Assembly (NCBI GenBank): GCA_023229365.1
Contig: JALNZK010000002.1
Location: 318,343 to 340,072, forward strand
DNA from: Pseudomonadota bacterium
GTDB lineage: Bacteria > Myxococcota_A > Polyangia > JAAYKL01
Reading direction: 5' to 3'
DNA: 21,730 nt
Shown here: positions 14,816 through 19,240 of the stretch, piece by piece
Layout: each line of letters opens with the position of its first letter
Numbering within the stretch: position 1 is the stretch's first letter
Notes under the pieces: model-generated
What the model was told of the DNA's origin: nothing
Seen by the model: the letters and a program-made list of their open reading frames with translations, nothing else
The model's database searches: none
Program-made: the position numbers and the translations under genes

Positions 14816-15046
14816 TTAGCCGAAAACTGCCTCCGGTCGGAGTGTAAGGGTGTTAGTTTCACCATTACGATCAACAGCAAAAGCCCGTAGCTTCCCTTGA
14901 GGGATGCCTAGCCAATCGGCGGCAGCATTGCGGATATCGGCATCCGAGCTATTGTCGCCAATATTCAGTTCCGCCAAGGGAACGTCGTAAGACCTTCCTT
15001 CGACTCGAACGTGCAGCATGTTTTCAAGTTGGTTTTCGTTGTCCAT
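14816..15046 (-). CDS. ubiquitin-sized beta-grasp-like small protein (76 aa; ends ...TLTLRPEAVFG)
   Basis: AAGGAG RBS 9 nt upstream. The alternating strand-helix pattern 'HVRVEGRSYDVPL...DIRNAAADWLGIPQGKLRAFAV...TLTLRPE' resembles ubiquitin/ThiS ('GIPPDQQRLIF...LHLVLRLRGG'). It ends in a single Gly. Confidence 0.45.
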   Translation of the reverse strand: MDNENQLENMLHVRVEGRSYDVPLAELNIGDNSSDADIRNAAADWLGIPQGKLRAFAVDRNGETNTLTLRPEAVFG

Positions 15047-15089
15047 CGTAATTTCTCCTTATATCGTTCGTTCGTCTTTCACTTTCCCT

Positions 15090-15117
15090 ATTATACTTCA
15101 GAAATTTGAGTTGTAAA
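15090..15117 (-). promoter_or_regulatory. sigma70-like promoter P2 (minus strand), driving the Ubl-like and Ro60-like genes
   Basis: Minus-strand TTTACAACTCAAATTTCTGAAGTATAAT: -35 TTTACA, 16-nt spacer, perfect -10. Confidence 0.55.
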
Positions 15118-15153
15118 CAAGAAAAAATCCGTCCAAGTTACAAAAACTGTTTT

Positions 15154-15228
15154 TGGTAAACAATGCAGGAATTGAACCAGCATTCTTCAGTTTTCAAGAC
15201 TGACGCTCAACCATTGAGCTAATTGTTT
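15154..15228 (-). tRNA. complete cloverleaf tRNA, anticodon UGA (Ser), but with a short (5-nt) variable arm and an encoded CCA
   Basis: Minus strand AAACAAT-TA-GCTC-AATGGTT-GAGC-G-TCAGT-CTTGAAA-ACTGA-AGAAT-GCTGG-TTCAATT-CCTGC-ATTGTTT-A-CCA, 75 nt. All four stems pair (one U·U in the T stem). U33 is present. The A/U-rich acceptor stem is unusual. Confidence 0.55.
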
Positions 15229-15257
15229 GTAAGTTTTAGTGGTATGGGACGGAAAGT

Positions 15258-15313
15258 GGAGGGTGTTGGATTCGAACCAACATTTTTTCGTTTTCAGTGA
15301 AAAAAGTTACCTT
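15258..15313 (-). ncRNA. partial tRNA-like module (anticodon-like hairpin, canonical T-arm and a 7-nt acceptor-3'-like segment; no D-arm or 5' acceptor strand found)
   Basis: Minus strand ...TTTTTTC-ACTGAAAAC-GAAAAAA-T-GTTGG-TTCGAAT-CCAAC-ACCCTCC-A, immediately followed by the next A-motif. Confidence 0.3.
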
Positions 15314-15395
15314 TTGTTTGTATGTCTCTCAGGTGTGGGACAATTGCTTGTCCAAGTTTGGGAAACTGAACGTTTTTAACCCTCCAAAGTATCAG

Positions 15396-15521
15396 CGGGG
15401 AAGATGGGATTCGAACCCATAATTTTTCCTTAACAGGGAAACTTTTACCAATTGTTTGTATGTCTCTCAGGTGTGGGATGGTCGCCCATCCAAGTTTGGG
15501 AAACTGAACTTCTAACTTCCC
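15396..15521 (-). tRNA. tRNA-like gene (anticodon GUU, Asn-like) interrupted by a roughly 57-nt conserved hairpin element in the D-arm region
   Basis: Acceptor 5' strand GGGGAAG (15515-15521) pairs perfectly with CTTCCCC (15397-15403). Canonical anticodon arm TTTCC-CTGTTAA-GGAAA. T-arm ATGGG-TTCGAAT-CCCAT. Between the acceptor and the anticodon arm lies AGTTTCCCAAACTTGGATGG-GCGA-CCATCCCACACCTGAGAGACATACAAACAA, the B'-GNRA-A' element. Confidence 0.4.
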
Positions 15522-15612
15522 CATGTGCCCGGTTTATAATTCTCTGCCTGCAACCGGAAACCCGGCAGAAAAGCCTCCAGTTATTGGTTTATCCCAAGAG
15601 GCGAGTAATCAG

Positions 15613-15738
15613 ACCCGGTGGTAGGAGTCGCACCTACAATCTTTTCCTTAGGATGGAAACGCTGTTTGTACGTCTCTCAGGTTTGGGATAATTTCTTATC
15701 CGAGTTTGGGAAACTGTTTGCTGTTTAGCTTCACCGGG
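15613..15738 (-). tRNA. tRNA-like gene (anticodon CCU, Arg-like) interrupted by the same conserved hairpin element
   Basis: Acceptor CCCGGTG (15732-15738) pairs with CACCGGG (15614-15620). Anticodon arm TTTCC-ATCCTAA-GGAAA. T-arm GTAGG-TGCGACT-CCTAC (T-loop has G at position 55). Inserted AGTTTCCCAAACTCGGATAA-GAAA-TTATCCCAAACCTGAGAGACGTACAAACAGC. Confidence 0.4.
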
Positions 15739-15788
15739 ATATTCATAAGGCAAACATTTGATCGTCCAAGTCGAAGAAACTGTTTTTT

Positions 15789-15860
15789 GCAACAATGTTG
15801 GATTCGCACCAACTACCGAAACTTTATGGAAGTTTTGCTCTACTGATGAGCTAATTGTTT
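15789..15860 (-). tRNA. near-canonical cloverleaf tRNA-like gene, anticodon CAU, enclosed by a 24-bp perfect leader-trailer stem
   Basis: Minus strand AAACAAT-TA-GCTC-ATCAGTA-GAGC-A-AAACT-TCCATAA-AGTTT-CGGTA-GTTGG-TGCGAAT-CCAAC-ATTGTTG-C, 72 nt. Deviations: A1·G72, C33, G55 and a D-loop lacking GG. Flanked by the perfect inverted repeats 15744-15767 and 15879-15902. Confidence 0.45.
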
Positions 15861-15913
15861 GTAAGTTCCGTCAGTATGGGACGATCAAATGTTTGCCTTA
15901 TGTTGATTTTACC

Positions 15914-16090
15914 GACGCAAGCAAGTGTTGGCCCGTCCAAGTCGAAAAAGCTGTTTCACATAGTGACAGTTTAATAGACTGTTGCCTTTACCATTAGGCT
16001 AAAACACATTTTGGCGTGTTTGTTGGATTCGAACCAACAGATTGTTTGTAAGCTCTGTCTGTGTGGGACGAGCAAACACTTGCCTGCGTC
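15914..16090 (-). ncRNA. circularly permuted tRNA-like / Y-RNA-like unit Y2
   Basis: Minus strand order: 25-nt 5' stem strand (16090-16066), then A' motif, then T-arm GTTGG-TTCGAAT-CCAAC, then a closed acceptor-like hairpin AAACAC-GCCAAAAT-GTGTTT, then TA, then D-arm GCCT-AATGGTAA-AGGC, then anticodon-like hairpin ACAGT-CTATTAA-ACTGT, then B' motif, then the 3' stem strand (15938-15914). The terminal stem has 3 mismatches, 2 of which are G·U-compatible only in the minus-strand RNA. Confidence 0.45.
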
Positions 16091-16262
16091 AACATCATCA
16101 AGCTTCCGTCTGTCCAAGTTGAAGAAGCTGTTCAACTTTTGACAGTTCCAATTACTGGTGCCTGACCGTTAGGCTACATTCCTTGCGGAATGATGGGAGT
16201 CGAACCCACTTATTTGTTTGTAAGCTCCGTCTGTATGGGACAGACGGAAGCTTGATGATGTT
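16091..16262 (-). ncRNA. circularly permuted tRNA-like / Y-RNA-like unit Y1
   Basis: Enclosed by the perfect 25-bp inverted repeat 16238-16262 / 16091-16115. Internal order: A' motif, then T-arm GTGGG-TTCGACT-CCCAT, then closed acceptor-like hairpin CATTCC-GCAA-GGAATG (GNRA loop), then TA, then D-arm GCCT-AACGGTC-AGGC (G18G19 present), then hairpin CAGT-AATTGGA-ACTG, then B' motif. Confidence 0.45.
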
Positions 16263-16339
16263 TACAACTCAAATTGTCAAAGAACACAAAATTGGCTATC
16301 CAAGTTCATAGAGGGGAGAACATTCAAATCTCCCCCTTC

Positions 16340-16475
16340 AAGCGGGGGAGAAAGTCGTTTGTAACCTCTATAGGTTTGGGATAGCAAGGGGAGCCGTTGG
16401 AGTCGAACCAACAAAACCACAAGCCCCGTCTTTCAACACTATACGCTGAATACCGTATTGCGGTTCATTCAGTAT
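16340..16475 (-). ncRNA. first transcribed module of the array: 5' stem-loop, T-arm/acceptor minihelix and G/C-rich alternative hairpins
   Basis: Minus strand from about 16473: CTGAATGAACCG-CAATA-CGGTATTCAG hairpin. Then GGGGCTT...GTTGG-TTCGACT-CCAAC-GGCTCCC (acceptor-like pairing with G·U). Then A' motif. Then TCTCCCCC-GCTTGAA-GGGGGAGA-TTTGAATGT-TCTCCCC, two mutually exclusive hairpins sharing GGGGGAGA. Confidence 0.3.
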
Positions 16476-16480
16476 GATCT

Positions 16481-16508
16481 ATTATACGCCTTTTTTATTC
16501 CCTGTCAA
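16481..16508 (-). promoter_or_regulatory. consensus sigma70 promoter P4 (minus strand), immediately upstream of the tRNA-like array
   Basis: Minus strand TTGACA-GGGAATAAAAAAGGCG-TATAAT: perfect -35 and -10 with a 16-nt spacer. The transcript would begin with the CTGAAT...ATTCAG hairpin. Confidence 0.65.
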
Positions 16509-16542
16509 CACCAGTTTCTCAATTTTCAAAAAAATTTTTCGG

Positions 16543-16782
16543 TTATTCTTCCCGCATGGCTTTTAATGCCGCCTGGGAAATTTCAATTCCCCGAAAAAAT
16601 TCCTGCAAATGTTCGTCATTCTCGCCCAGGTTGAAGTCAGCCTCATGAAGAATTTCCCCATGAACAAAGGCGTTGTGTACGCCAGTCATAATGTACCGTG
16701 GATCGGCTTGTGCTTCAACTACAAGCATTCTAATGAAATGCTCGACTACTTCGTGGGTTTGTATTTGATCTGCTGTCATCAT
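16543..16782 (-). CDS. hypothetical acidic protein (79 aa)
   Basis: GGAGG RBS. Sits directly downstream of promoter P3 and upstream of P4 and the array. The antisense +ORF 16609-16902 is rejected. Confidence 0.5.
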   Translation of the reverse strand: MMTADQIQTHEVVEHFIRMLVVEAQADPRYIMTGVHNAFVHGEILHEADFNLGENDEHLQEFFRGIEISQAALKAMREE

Positions 16783-16891: not shown

Positions 16892-19240
16892 ATGGAAATT
16901 AAAGGTGCATTTAAGGCCGAAACGATTGTTGCTGGCAATATTAATTATTCAGCAGATACTGGGGCTGCCAACGCTTATGTTGTAAGCTTGGGTTTAAATT
17001 ATTTATTTATAGGGCTGCCGGTTTCTTTCAAAGCCTCTCATGATAATACAGGTGCGTCAACTTTAAAAGTTGATAGTCTGCCTGCTGTTGCTATTAAAAA
17101 AAATGTAAGTGATGCCCTGGATATGGGCGATATCAAAACAGGACAAGTCATCACTGTTATTTATGATGGAATATATTTTCAAATAGCAAGTGCCCTTGGC
17201 TCAGGTATTAGCGGATATTCTGGCTACTCTGGAATTGGTATTAGTGGGTATAGCGGATATTCAGGTGACTCAGGCATTAGTGGGTATAGCGGATATTCAG
17301 GTGACTCAGGCATTAGTGGGTATAGCGGATATTCAGGTGACTCAGGCATCAGTGGATACTCAGGATACTCAGGATCAGGCATCAGTGGATATTCAGGATA
17401 CTCAGGATCAGGCATCAGTGGATATTCAGGATACTCAGGATCAGGCATCAGTGGATACTCAGGATACTCTGGAACCACAAATATATATTTGGGAAATCCA
17501 ACGACTGGCGATTACCTAGATGGGTTATTTCCCTGGGAACCCAATGTAACTTTGATTGCTGATGCCGAACAAGAAGTAAATGAAGTATTAGCTGCATTAG
17601 CACCCGCACCAGCACCCAATTTTTCGACATATAACAATGCCCAAACAACAGGAGCAACAGGAAAACTAAGTTTTGATGGATCATATCCCATAGGCGGTGT
17701 ATCGAACGTAGATGGCATTGGCAATTGCACATCTGTCGCTGTCGATGGTGCATTTACTTATAATGCTTTAAGCGGCATGCGAAGAGGTGTTTTTAGTTCC
17801 ACAACAACAAGTTTTACAGGACAATTGGCATCTAATATTGTTGCAGAACCGAATGGAGCATATCTTCAATATGCTTTTATTGACGGTGACACAGGAATTC
17901 TAAGTATATATGTCAATAATGATGTAACACCAAAACATACTGTTGATTTATCAATATTTAGTTCTGGAAGCTCTCTGAATGGCAATGGCACCGGGTTTAC
18001 AAGTATATCAGCAGTAACCTATGAAAAATTTCCTAATGGCAGTGATTTTACATTATTTGTTTATAGGACAGCACAATGGGTGGTCAATACCGCTGATTGC
18101 AGAGAAGGTTGGAATTGGGTGCGTATTACCCATACCGTAGGAACAGATCGCCCGCCCACCAATCTTTATTGCGATTTTATTCGTGACCTAAATACTACGA
18201 CCACGACTTTTTCTGCGGACACGCTTACAGGATTTACTGGCAGTGGATCAAAATATTTGTCGGGAGTAAATTATTATACGGGTGGATCGGCAACTTATGC
18301 CGCAACAATCAGCAATCTTTACAGAAACACATGGTATACAGGATCAGATGCTATTGCTTACAGCTTTAACAGCACCCCTTTACAAGCATTGACAAATGAA
18401 TCTTTGGGCAATTCAGGAGGGGATGAAGCACTAGATGTAACTAAATCAAAAACAGTAAACATTACTTCATCCAGCACCAGACTAAATCCCACTGCTGGAC
18501 ATACCATTAGTGTTAGAACAACTGCAAAAAGGACTGTGCAATCTACTCAATCTTCATCCTATCGATCTATCACAGATATACTTCTTGATAATTTTGTTGC
18601 CTCATCTACCGTTACTGCTGAATATTTTGACGATGAGACTTATAGATTGCCATCAAATTCAGATTTTGACAACGACGCTACAGCCGTCACTAGTTCGTGG
18701 ACATCATCTAATACCATTGCTGATGCTGGTAGTGCTGGATACAACGATGGAACACAAACATATAATGGCACACTTGTGTATCCAACAATGAATTTCTCAA
18801 CCATAGCCAATGGTCCCGCTGGAAACGTTAACTACTCCACAGGTATATCTGGTGAACGTTGCTATTATAGATTTTTTGACATGTTAACCACAGCTAGGAG
18901 CAATTTTACACTTACGGTAAATGGAGCGTCAATAACACCAATATCAAATGGAACGGCTTTTTCTACAACAAGTCAAATAAAAATAGATATTAAGCTACCT
19001 AATGATGGTGGAGAAGGCACTGGTTGGCTAGATGTAACTGCATTGTTCGCAACAGCCCATTGGTCAGACGGTGACGGATGTTTGTTATCAGGAACATTTT
19101 CTATGAATTCTGCCATGTCAATAACTGTTGGCACAAAATCTACGGGAGCCGCAAGTGTTAATGGCAAGGTATTTTTAAGAATTAGAGTTCCTAGTGGATG
19201 GATTAGAAATTTGACTAGTATTACATTGGTTGGAGCATAA
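16892..19240 (+). CDS. putative tail fibre / receptor-binding protein with a collagen-like (Gly-X-Ser)n segment (782 aa)
   Basis: N-terminal about 100-aa domain ('AETIVAGNINYSADTGAANAYVV...'). About 95 aa of GYS/GIS/GDS triplet repeats (17198-17472). Then a large Ser/Thr/Asn/Gly-rich C-terminal region typical of fibre or adhesin distal domains. 'PAPAPN' linker. Confidence 0.75.
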   Translation: MEIKGAFKAETIVAGNINYSADTGAANAYVVSLGLNYLFIGLPVSFKASHDNTGASTLKVDSLPAVAIKKNVSDALDMGDIKTGQVITVIYDGIYFQIASALGSGISGYSGYSGIGISGYSGYSGDSGISGYSGYSGDSGISGYSGYSGDSGISGYSGYSGSGISGYSGYSGSGISGYSGYSGSGISGYSGYSGTTNIYLGNPTTGDYLDGLFPWEPNVTLIADAEQEVNEVLAALAPAPAPNFSTYNNAQTTGATGKLSFDGSYPIGGVSNVDGIGNCTSVAVDGAFTYNALSGMRRGVFSSTTTSFTGQLASNIVAEPNGAYLQYAFIDGDTGILSIYVNNDVTPKHTVDLSIFSSGSSLNGNGTGFTSISAVTYEKFPNGSDFTLFVYRTAQWVVNTADCREGWNWVRITHTVGTDRPPTNLYCDFIRDLNTTTTTFSADTLTGFTGSGSKYLSGVNYYTGGSATYAATISNLYRNTWYTGSDAIAYSFNSTPLQALTNESLGNSGGDEALDVTKSKTVNITSSSTRLNPTAGHTISVRTTAKRTVQSTQSSSYRSITDILLDNFVASSTVTAEYFDDETYRLPSNSDFDNDATAVTSSWTSSNTIADAGSAGYNDGTQTYNGTLVYPTMNFSTIANGPAGNVNYSTGISGERCYYRFFDMLTTARSNFTLTVNGASITPISNGTAFSTTSQIKIDIKLPNDGGEGTGWLDVTALFATAHWSDGDGCLLSGTFSMNSAMSITVGTKSTGAASVNGKVFLRIRVPSGWIRNLTSITLVGA
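17198..17472 (+). repeat. 36-bp/33-bp tandem coding repeats encoding (G-Y-S / G-I-S / G-D-S)n
   Basis: Repeating 'SGISGYSGYSGD' (12 aa), then 'SGISGYSGYSG' (11 aa) units. The ORFs on other frames and on the antisense strand across this region (17190-17519+, 17224-17478-, 17448-17753-, 17512-17730-) are repeat artefacts. Confidence 0.85.

Follow-up and report, generated by a model that had tools for sequence, protein, structure and literature searches.

The window analysed here is a stretch of 21,730 nucleotides (nt) of contig JALNZK010000002.1 that carries an array of structured RNA genes, spanning approximately 16450 to 15130 behind a consensus sigma-70-like site, and, downstream of it, a gene for a Ro60-like protein (13123-14727). 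Three RNAs of the array are tRNA-like units in which a conserved 52-nt element lies within the D-loop. The same element, hereafter called the module, surrounds other RNAs of the array and recurs in the 5' untranslated region (UTR) of the Ro60-like gene. Coordinates are whole-window positions; the units, the module array, and the Ro60-like gene are all on the minus strand.

Unit 1 (15396-15522) has the anticodon GUU and a discriminator G at 15396. Its acceptor stem pairs GGGGAAG (15522-15516) with CUUCCCC (15403-15397) at all seven positions; its anticodon arm is UUUCC-CUGUUAA-GGAAA (5/5 stem pairs), its T arm AUGGG-UUCGAAU-CCCAU, and its variable loop 4 nt long, and the centroid fold recovers the acceptor stem, the module, the T arm, and part of the anticodon stem. 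Unit 2 (15613-15738; anticodon CCU, U73 at 15613) pairs CCCGGUG (15738-15732) with CACCGGG (15620-15614) and has the anticodon arm UUUCC-AUCCUAA-GGAAA, the T arm GUAGG-UGCGACU-CCUAC, and a 5-nt variable loop; residues bracketing the module can form a 3-bp D stem (GCU/AGC). Unit 3 (15257-15385; anticodon GAA, discriminator A) is built in the same way, and its minimum free energy fold consists of the acceptor stem, the module, the anticodon arm, and the T arm; an AAA/UUU D stem can be read by hand only in a register 1 nt off the canonical one, the scripted register giving two of three pairs. In units 1 and 3 the GG...A of a D-loop comes after the module.

The canonical 7-bp acceptor stem, 5-bp anticodon stem with 7-nt loop bearing U33 and a purine at 37, and T arm with its UUCGA-type loop are thus present in the window units, and no full cloverleaf with a D arm of normal size is recovered from the three by ARAGORN or Rfam. 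ARAGORN calls none of them as a tRNA, and the Rfam tRNA model (RF00005) scores units 1, 2, and 3 at 26.6, 16.9, and 25.3 bits, all under its 29-bit threshold, with matches confined to model positions 7-64 or 9-63. Because the matches are partial and below threshold, the units are tRNA-like except in the D arm; the D region of each tRNA body is abnormal. An earlier note on this DNA had described two of the units. Its perfect 7-bp acceptor pairings (GGGGAAG/CTTCCCC and CCCGGTG/CACCGGG) are confirmed, its canonical anticodon arms (GUU and CCU) and T arms can be read directly in both units, and the conserved D-region element that it described matches exactly at 15505-15454 and 15715-15664, with the GNRA loops GCGA and GAAA. 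Its limits for unit 2 stand, but unit 1 ends at 15522 rather than 15521; the 5-nt variable loop that it gave to both units applies to unit 2 and is 4 nt in unit 1; and the third unit (15385-15257, GAA) had been overlooked.

The module consists of two helices in the order Pa-loop-Pb, followed by the heptamer UACAAAC. The copy in unit 1 (15454-15505) is made up of the Pb 3' strand AGUUUCCC, AAACUUGG, Pa with its tetraloop (AUGG-GCGA-CCAU), CCCACAC, the Pb 5' strand, and UACAAAC; the copies in unit 2 (15664-15715) and unit 3 (15316-15367) have the Pa hairpins AUAA-GAAA-UUAU and ACAA-GCAA-UUGU. Pa therefore stays paired with differing sequences in the three window hairpins (AUGG/CCAU, AUAA/UUAU, and ACAA/UUGU), and their Pb strands are identical. 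Helix Pb has nine pairs, including one recurrent mismatch, and Pa at least 6 bp. The internal loop, 5' (G/A)UCCCA.AC opposite 3' AACUUGG in the window copies, has the consensus 5' GUCYC.NAY / 3' ACUURGAC with an invariant mismatch, and the single-stranded heptamer is invariant across all aligned copies.

For the alignment, copies were found by way of the heptamer, their partner strands were located, and the copies were normalised to the hairpin form and aligned with MAFFT, giving 53 distinct copies from the window and 14 further loci (15 sources in all). Of the 17 proposed pairs, 15 change on both sides; one pair of positions is never standard, and covariation scores 0.598, compared with 0.22 for shuffled alignments (0/500 reach the observed value) and 0.11 for slid partners; since the copies were chosen partly by their ability to pair, the paired fraction is inflated, while the variety of pair types at each position is unaffected. 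In the window, TACAAAC occurs 13 times against 3.4 expected (none of 100 shuffles reaches 13), and the full leader motif CCCANAC-N10-TACAAAC occurs nine times, always on the minus strand. A third helix, Pc, between the AAAC of the heptamer and an upstream GUU(U), is tentative, with weak enrichment (35/59 compared with 22/59 in a control window). The module is a real RNA structure of two conserved, covarying helices.

Three topologies of the module are found: closed by a tetraloop in a tRNA D-loop, as in units 1 to 3; split into halves that flank an ordinary tRNA; and split into halves that flank a circularly permuted tRNA-like RNA. Two window copies are of the second kind. The halves at 15128-15253 enclose a tRNA (15228-15154) with the anticodon UGA and an encoded ACCA, called by both ARAGORN and Rfam (69.9 bits), whose position +1 is the first A of the heptamer AAAC; the halves at 15747-15899 enclose a tRNA with the anticodon CAU (15860-15789), also called by both programs, with Pa extended to approximately 21 bp. 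Two further copies flank permuted RNAs with the arm order T arm, closed acceptor stem, D arm, anticodon arm: one at 15914-16090, which has an AUU anticodon arm and an acceptor stem closed by CCAAAA, and whose fold recovers all arms, and one at 16093-16260, with an acceptor stem closed by GCAA. In the first of these the acceptor loop holds an encoded CCA, and leader-trailer stems of up to approximately 25 bp enclose each permuted unit. The halves at 16292-16387 surround a hairpin cargo unlike a tRNA, as read from the sequence. The ninth copy (14717-14797) is part of the Ro60-like gene's 5' UTR, encloses a 5-bp hairpin (fold z = -5.7), and stops approximately 20 nt ahead of the probable start codon; its position hints at autoregulation or co-processing.

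The array is preceded by a promoter-like site at 16481-16508, which matches the consensus TTGACA-16-TATAAT at 12 of 12 positions; a second site (15090-15117; 11/12), likewise assigned as a consensus match, lies at the boundary between the array and the genes for a small open reading frame (ORF) and the Ro60-like protein. Ahead of the first module, at 16450-16391, a T-arm-like hairpin (GUUGG-UUCGACU-CCAAC) lies within GGGGCU...GGCUCCCC, with no obvious remainder of a tRNA.

The protein encoded downstream is listed as 534 amino acids (aa) long from a TTG codon, with a probable ATG start at 14696. Its AlphaFold2 model (mean predicted local distance difference test score, pLDDT, 81) has the HEAT-repeat ring of Ro60 and a vWA domain. 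In Foldseek searches with the model, the top 13 PDB matches are all Ro60 (E 1e-10 to 6e-8), followed only by isolated vWA domains, and the alignment with Ro60 structures is full-length at template modelling (TM) scores of 0.5-0.6. At the sequence level the best PDB match is the Ro60 of Thermus phage phiLo (profile E = 0.002), in which DVSGS aligns with DKSGS of the window protein at the MIDAS motif (metal ion-dependent adhesion site). Pfam TROVE gives no match for the window protein, and for vWA_Ro60 its homologues peak at 25.1 bits against a cut-off of 27.7. Judged from the model, the protein has a Ro60 fold and is a divergent Ro60-like protein. Its family numbers over 2,000 clusters, with at least 583 confirmed matches in species-representative genomes; the genome matches listed are mostly from Planctomycetota, with others from Chloroflexota, Cyanobacteria, and Abditibacteriota. 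The family is also found on 11 IMG/VR contigs, which came from an alignment-based search (a single-protein query of viral contigs gave none), and in one GenBank record, an unannotated 595-kb uncultured phage.

The module is tied to the Ro60-fold gene in both directions. Starting from the protein, the 1.5 kb upstream of the gene in 91 Ro60-like loci contain TACAAAC 189 times on the gene strand and twice on the opposite strand; the heptamer does not occur on the gene strand within the Ro60-like gene itself. It is found upstream in 70 of the 91 loci, bacterial chromosomes among them, and one phage locus (L090) has 13 sites. Starting from the RNA, a pattern of the module alone matches six contigs in the whole of IMG/VR, and all six encode a Ro60-like protein. 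In metagenomes, 13 module loci had at least 3 kb of downstream sequence; one is a chance match, and in nine of the 12 real loci a Ro60-like gene follows downstream on the same strand. Two other patterns were uninformative: a leader-only scan of IMG/VR returned single chance-level matches, and the five loci matched by a window-specific hairpin pattern were rejected as chance, four of them being copies of one apparently protein-coding stretch and none having the hairpin or a Ro60-like gene.

Hairpin-form copies numbered 17 in the window and viral loci and 115 distinct copies once metagenomes were added. A T arm lies 3' of the module in 90 of the 115, and 72, all distinct metagenomic or viral hosts, have at least six of seven acceptor pairs and at least four of five anticodon-stem pairs. 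These 72 hosts have diverse anticodons (CAU, GAA, UCU, UUU, GUA, GUU, AUU, and others); 60 of them have U33 and 66 a purine at position 37. In 34 hosts the module is bracketed by a 3-bp D stem, and in 50 a GG, read as G18-G19, comes after it; the bracketing stems and the trailing GG place the module as an insertion into the D-loop, 5' of the GG, rather than as a replacement of the entire D arm. The alternative raised earlier, that a larger structured module had taken the place of the D arm, comes close to the evidence: covariation and the otherwise complete tRNA body support a structured module, rather than a degenerate D arm, within a tRNA-like RNA, although the D arm is not wholly replaced. 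The distance from the heptamer to the anticodon stem ranges from 1 to 23 nt, and D-loop lengths on both sides of the module vary widely.

Some features of the hosts stand apart from this pattern. Directly 3' of the discriminator, 66 of the 72 have C-U-(U/A/G) and a single one has CCA; module-flanked ordinary tRNAs, unlike the hairpin hosts, often encode CCA, as does the UGA tRNA of the window. A genuine module in one metagenomic locus (L222, position 3017 in minus-strand coordinates) follows a complete D arm (GCUC-AAUGGGA-GAGC) instead of lying in the D-loop, and no Ro60-like gene is found within 11 kb downstream of it.

Fourteen ordinary tRNAs are flanked by the module, and other cargo includes permuted, T-loop-first RNAs resembling YrlA, loops of 17-25 nt, and hairpins. 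In all 14 flanked ordinary tRNAs, position +1 is no more than 2 nt away from the first A of the heptamer AAAC, and in six it is that A. In the window (15228-15154) and four other loci, short variable loops are seen in module-flanked tRNAs whose anticodons are those of Ser or Leu (UGA, UAG, AAG), and further ones have unusual anticodons (AUU, UAU); the overlap between heptamer and acceptor stem makes all of them start with AAAC. Two bacterial chromosomal copies (L004 and L012) carry tRNA-like cargo with a loop-closed acceptor stem, to which the module is joined where YrlA joins its stem. One constant module at so many points of attachment has the look of a portable binding handle. In five other loci, 17-25 ordinary, module-free tRNA genes and then two to four heptamer sites precede the Ro60-like gene within 3 kb upstream.

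Two neighbours of the Ro60-like gene are also conserved. A 76-aa ORF (14816-15046, minus strand, ending ...RPEAVFG) between the array and the Ro60-like gene has homologues in 51 of the 91 loci by tblastn and no family match in the searches made; many shorter metagenomic module contigs carry it as well. On a related contig, Prok-JAB and ThiF genes lie a few kilobases away, which makes a ubiquitin-like role conceivable for the 76-aa protein. Downstream of the Ro60-like gene, a 335-aa protein (11278-12285, minus strand), present in 54 of the 91 loci, is confidently modelled and resembles only oligonucleotide/oligosaccharide-binding (OB) folds. No nuclease or ligase fold is recognisable among these conserved operon neighbours. 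The 335-aa protein is identical on a 228-kb contig, and the window therefore probably derives from a jumbo phage. On the other side of the array, a 782-aa ORF (16892-19240) contains long in-frame tandem repeats (17230-17480) of the SGYSGYSG type with a weak collagen match, and a second ORF (19770-21248) is highly repetitive (repeats at 19770-21250); both probably encode fibre-like structural proteins.

The nearest known systems pair Ro60 with Y RNAs. Ro60 genes of bacteria and phages are flanked by genes for Y RNAs with a tRNA-mimicking effector domain, and the YrlA of Mycobacterium smegmatis is cleaved by RNase P and receives CCA (PMC4201824). YrlA with Rsr/Ro60, known from Salmonella, Mycobacterium, and mycobacteriophages (Chen et al., 2014), likewise places RNA genes beside a Ro60-fold gene, has a stem formed by the RNA ends and a permuted tRNA-mimic body (T arm, closed acceptor stem, D arm), and is also borne by phages; its layout is shared by the two permuted units of the window and by the two chromosomal copies. 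In contrast to that system, the window protein is too divergent for Pfam TROVE; the stem motif is GUCYC.. / ACUURGAC with UACAAAC instead of GNCGAA; a complete tRNA, anticodon arm included, can serve as cargo; the module can sit as a closed hairpin in a D-loop or flank a normal tRNA; and the Rfam YrlA model stays below threshold in the window and finds no match in 15 related loci. Thermus phage phiLo offers a second comparison: its Ro60 binds two Y-like RNAs, Yrl1 and Yrl2, encoded upstream of the gene, as at this locus, but these are described as simple stem-bulge-stem RNAs with CGAA, with no tRNA bodies and no UACAAAC module (PMC12135203). Two traits of Y RNAs are found here, namely genes beside that of a Ro60-fold protein and a stem of distant strands with a conserved internal loop.

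We propose, at a probability of roughly 0.65, that the 52-nt element is a portable assembly module for the Ro60-like protein of its operon and is kept in the RNA rather than removed as an intron. The module would serve as the assembly site of the Ro60-like protein, possibly together with the two conserved partner proteins, and would take the role that the Ro-binding stem has in Y RNAs. Where it is closed by a GNRA loop in a D-loop it would stay in place, tethering the tRNA-shaped body to the Ro60-like ring. Binding by the protein and retention in the RNA are what this proposal adds to the structure and the genomic linkage. As to purpose, we can only speculate that such RNAs present tRNA bodies to tRNA-recognising enzymes, or that they guard, chaperone, or act as decoys for phage tRNAs during infection.

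Several observations weigh against this proposal. Neither of the reported Ro60-recognition motifs, the metazoan GGUCCGA bulged helix and the bacterial GNCGAAN0-1G (PMC4201824), is present in the module, whose consensus 5' strand is GUCYC.NAY and lacks CGAA. The GUCC.../...UUGGAC of the module does bear some resemblance to the animal Ro60 helix. The Rfam YrlA model (RF02553) reaches only the tRNA-like cargo of one copy (16209-16160), with 27.7 bits where the gathering score is 69. For two real metagenomic module copies, the 5-11 kb downstream contain no Ro60-like gene, and the protein that binds the module directly might be the conserved OB-fold protein or the 76-aa protein instead. The selection of aligned copies by pairing, mentioned above, is to be counted here as well. 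The hosts also look ready for decoding, in their diverse anticodons, U33, and purine 37, and their discriminators are consistent with identity (G73 with GUU, A73 with GAA); a tether has no obvious need of such hosts, and they would suit just as well a scheme in which the insert is removed before use.

It is possible but in our view unlikely that these are working, chargeable tRNAs with a permanent docking arm for the Ro60-like ring, placed in the D-loop or, in permuted two-piece forms, at the position of the variable loop. RNase P would in that case open the permuted forms at their encoded CCA. The outcome would be an unrecognised Ro60-tRNA particle in phages and in many Planctomycetota and Chloroflexota, which could shield or repair tRNAs attacked by anticodon nucleases or bring the ring to tRNA-binding machines.

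A somewhat more doubtful reading is that the element is an intervening sequence cut from the D-loop, with the halves ligated by a host RtcB-type ligase or an unrecognised phage enzyme; the same cuts and ligation would circularise the permuted tRNAs that are flanked by the module. Permuted tRNA genes of Cyanidioschyzon are circularised by cuts and ligation of this sort, and permuted tRNA-like genes are present in the same array as the D-loop insertions. The resemblance of the hosts to working tRNAs with diverse canonical anticodon loops speaks for this reading, as do the D-stem halves found on both sides of the insert in 34 of the 72; translation, too, might be hindered by a large arm close to the tRNA elbow. 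According to PMC7790460, Ro60 genes of other bacteria occur in RNA-repair operons with RtcB. Such cuts are nevertheless hard to place. Among 110 in-silico combinations of cut pairs per unit, no shared solution callable by ARAGORN emerged, the CCU unit never being called, and the D-loop lengths around the module, including the distance from heptamer to anticodon stem, are variable. Removal also makes no sense where the module encloses loops of 17-25 nt or lies in an mRNA leader, and the chromosomal copies carry tRNA-like cargo with a loop-closed acceptor stem.

Known introns offer no better fit. Archaeal non-canonical tRNA introns and permuted or split tRNA genes depend on a bulge-helix-bulge and the splicing endonuclease; they share with the present case interruption of the D-loop and permuted gene order in the same genome, but differ in that the insert here is a 15-bp, two-helix element with variable single-stranded junctions in a bacterial or phage context. 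By inspection, no bulge-helix-bulge (3-nt bulge, 4-bp helix, 3-nt bulge) is present at the junctions, which are unpaired and of variable length. Group I introns of tRNA genes have a catalytic core of more than 200 nt and lie in the anticodon loop; the element is 52 nt long and lies in the D-loop, and at E up to 10 there is no match to Intron_gpI or to any other intron or ribozyme family of Rfam. The proposal of the earlier note that the element might be an intervening sequence is thus not supported, given the same module in other contexts, the linkage to the Ro60-like gene, the lack of shared cuts and of any family match, and conserved neighbours with no nuclease or ligase fold.

It is improbable, too, that the module is a processing signal, either a self-cleaving ribozyme or an endonuclease site (UAC/AAAC, cut between C and A), that matures a polycistronic tRNA array in which the Ro60-like protein is a chaperone or a mere neighbour. 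The heptamer, invariant in the aligned copies, lies within 2 nt of +1 in all 14 flanked ordinary tRNAs, where a 5'-maturation cut is needed, and the array seems to be one transcript from a consensus promoter; but RNase P alone would explain the coincidence with +1, and for this reason we rate the reading low. A cut at the heptamer inside the D-loop would, moreover, split the three tRNA-like units, and strict linkage to the Ro60-like gene, single chromosomal copies, and a copy in an mRNA leader are not expected of a general signal. Hammerhead, twister, hepatitis delta virus (HDV)-like, hairpin, pistol, and hatchet ribozymes are absent from the 16 Rfam matches obtained at E up to 10 across 15050-16600. 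Two resemblances noticed by eye, of the leader ACCUGAGAGACAUAC to loop B of the hairpin ribozyme and of CUGAGAG to the hammerhead core, were dropped because in other copies this stretch is the Pb strand and varies in sequence, and because none of the ribozyme models gives a match. HDV-like theta ribozymes flank phage tRNAs and so, like the module, are conserved structured RNAs directly beside them; the module differs in matching no ribozyme family, in its placement within the tRNA or on its two sides, and in its link to the Ro60-like gene.

That the element is a selfish palindromic repeat, similar to a miniature inverted-repeat transposable element (MITE), and the units pseudogenes that it has disabled is scarcely credible, for although the hairpin shape and the identical Pb strands of the three window hairpins are as in recent copies, the heptamer has a strand bias of 189 to 2, compensatory changes keep both helices across distant lineages, the acceptor stem, anticodon stem, and T arm are kept in 72 distinct hosts, and the insertions are always at RNA-structural positions.

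No description of the module or of module-bearing tRNAs was found in Rfam 15 or in the literature searched. These RNAs are probably tRNA/Y-RNA hybrids, belonging to a system that works like the known Y RNA systems but fails to be recognised by the Ro60-recognition motifs, the Rfam YrlA model, and the Pfam cut-offs. New here are the module itself, cargo consisting of complete tRNAs, insertion into the D-loop, and large arrays. The results also explain why phage tRNA-like genes of a recurrent class, of which 72 distinct examples were collected, escape tRNA finders.

Of Y RNAs and their tRNA-like domains in bacteria, the founding paper states that the interactors are not known to its authors. The system described here offers a large unannotated Ro60-like branch, a sharply defined partner module, and natural grafts of that module onto real tRNAs at several positions, and so opens the role of the tRNA part to direct tests. 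Charging or splicing of the module-bearing tRNAs, whichever applies, would be new for bacteria and phages; if they are working tRNAs with a permanent docking arm, they would tie bacterial Ro60 biology to tRNA directly and testably.

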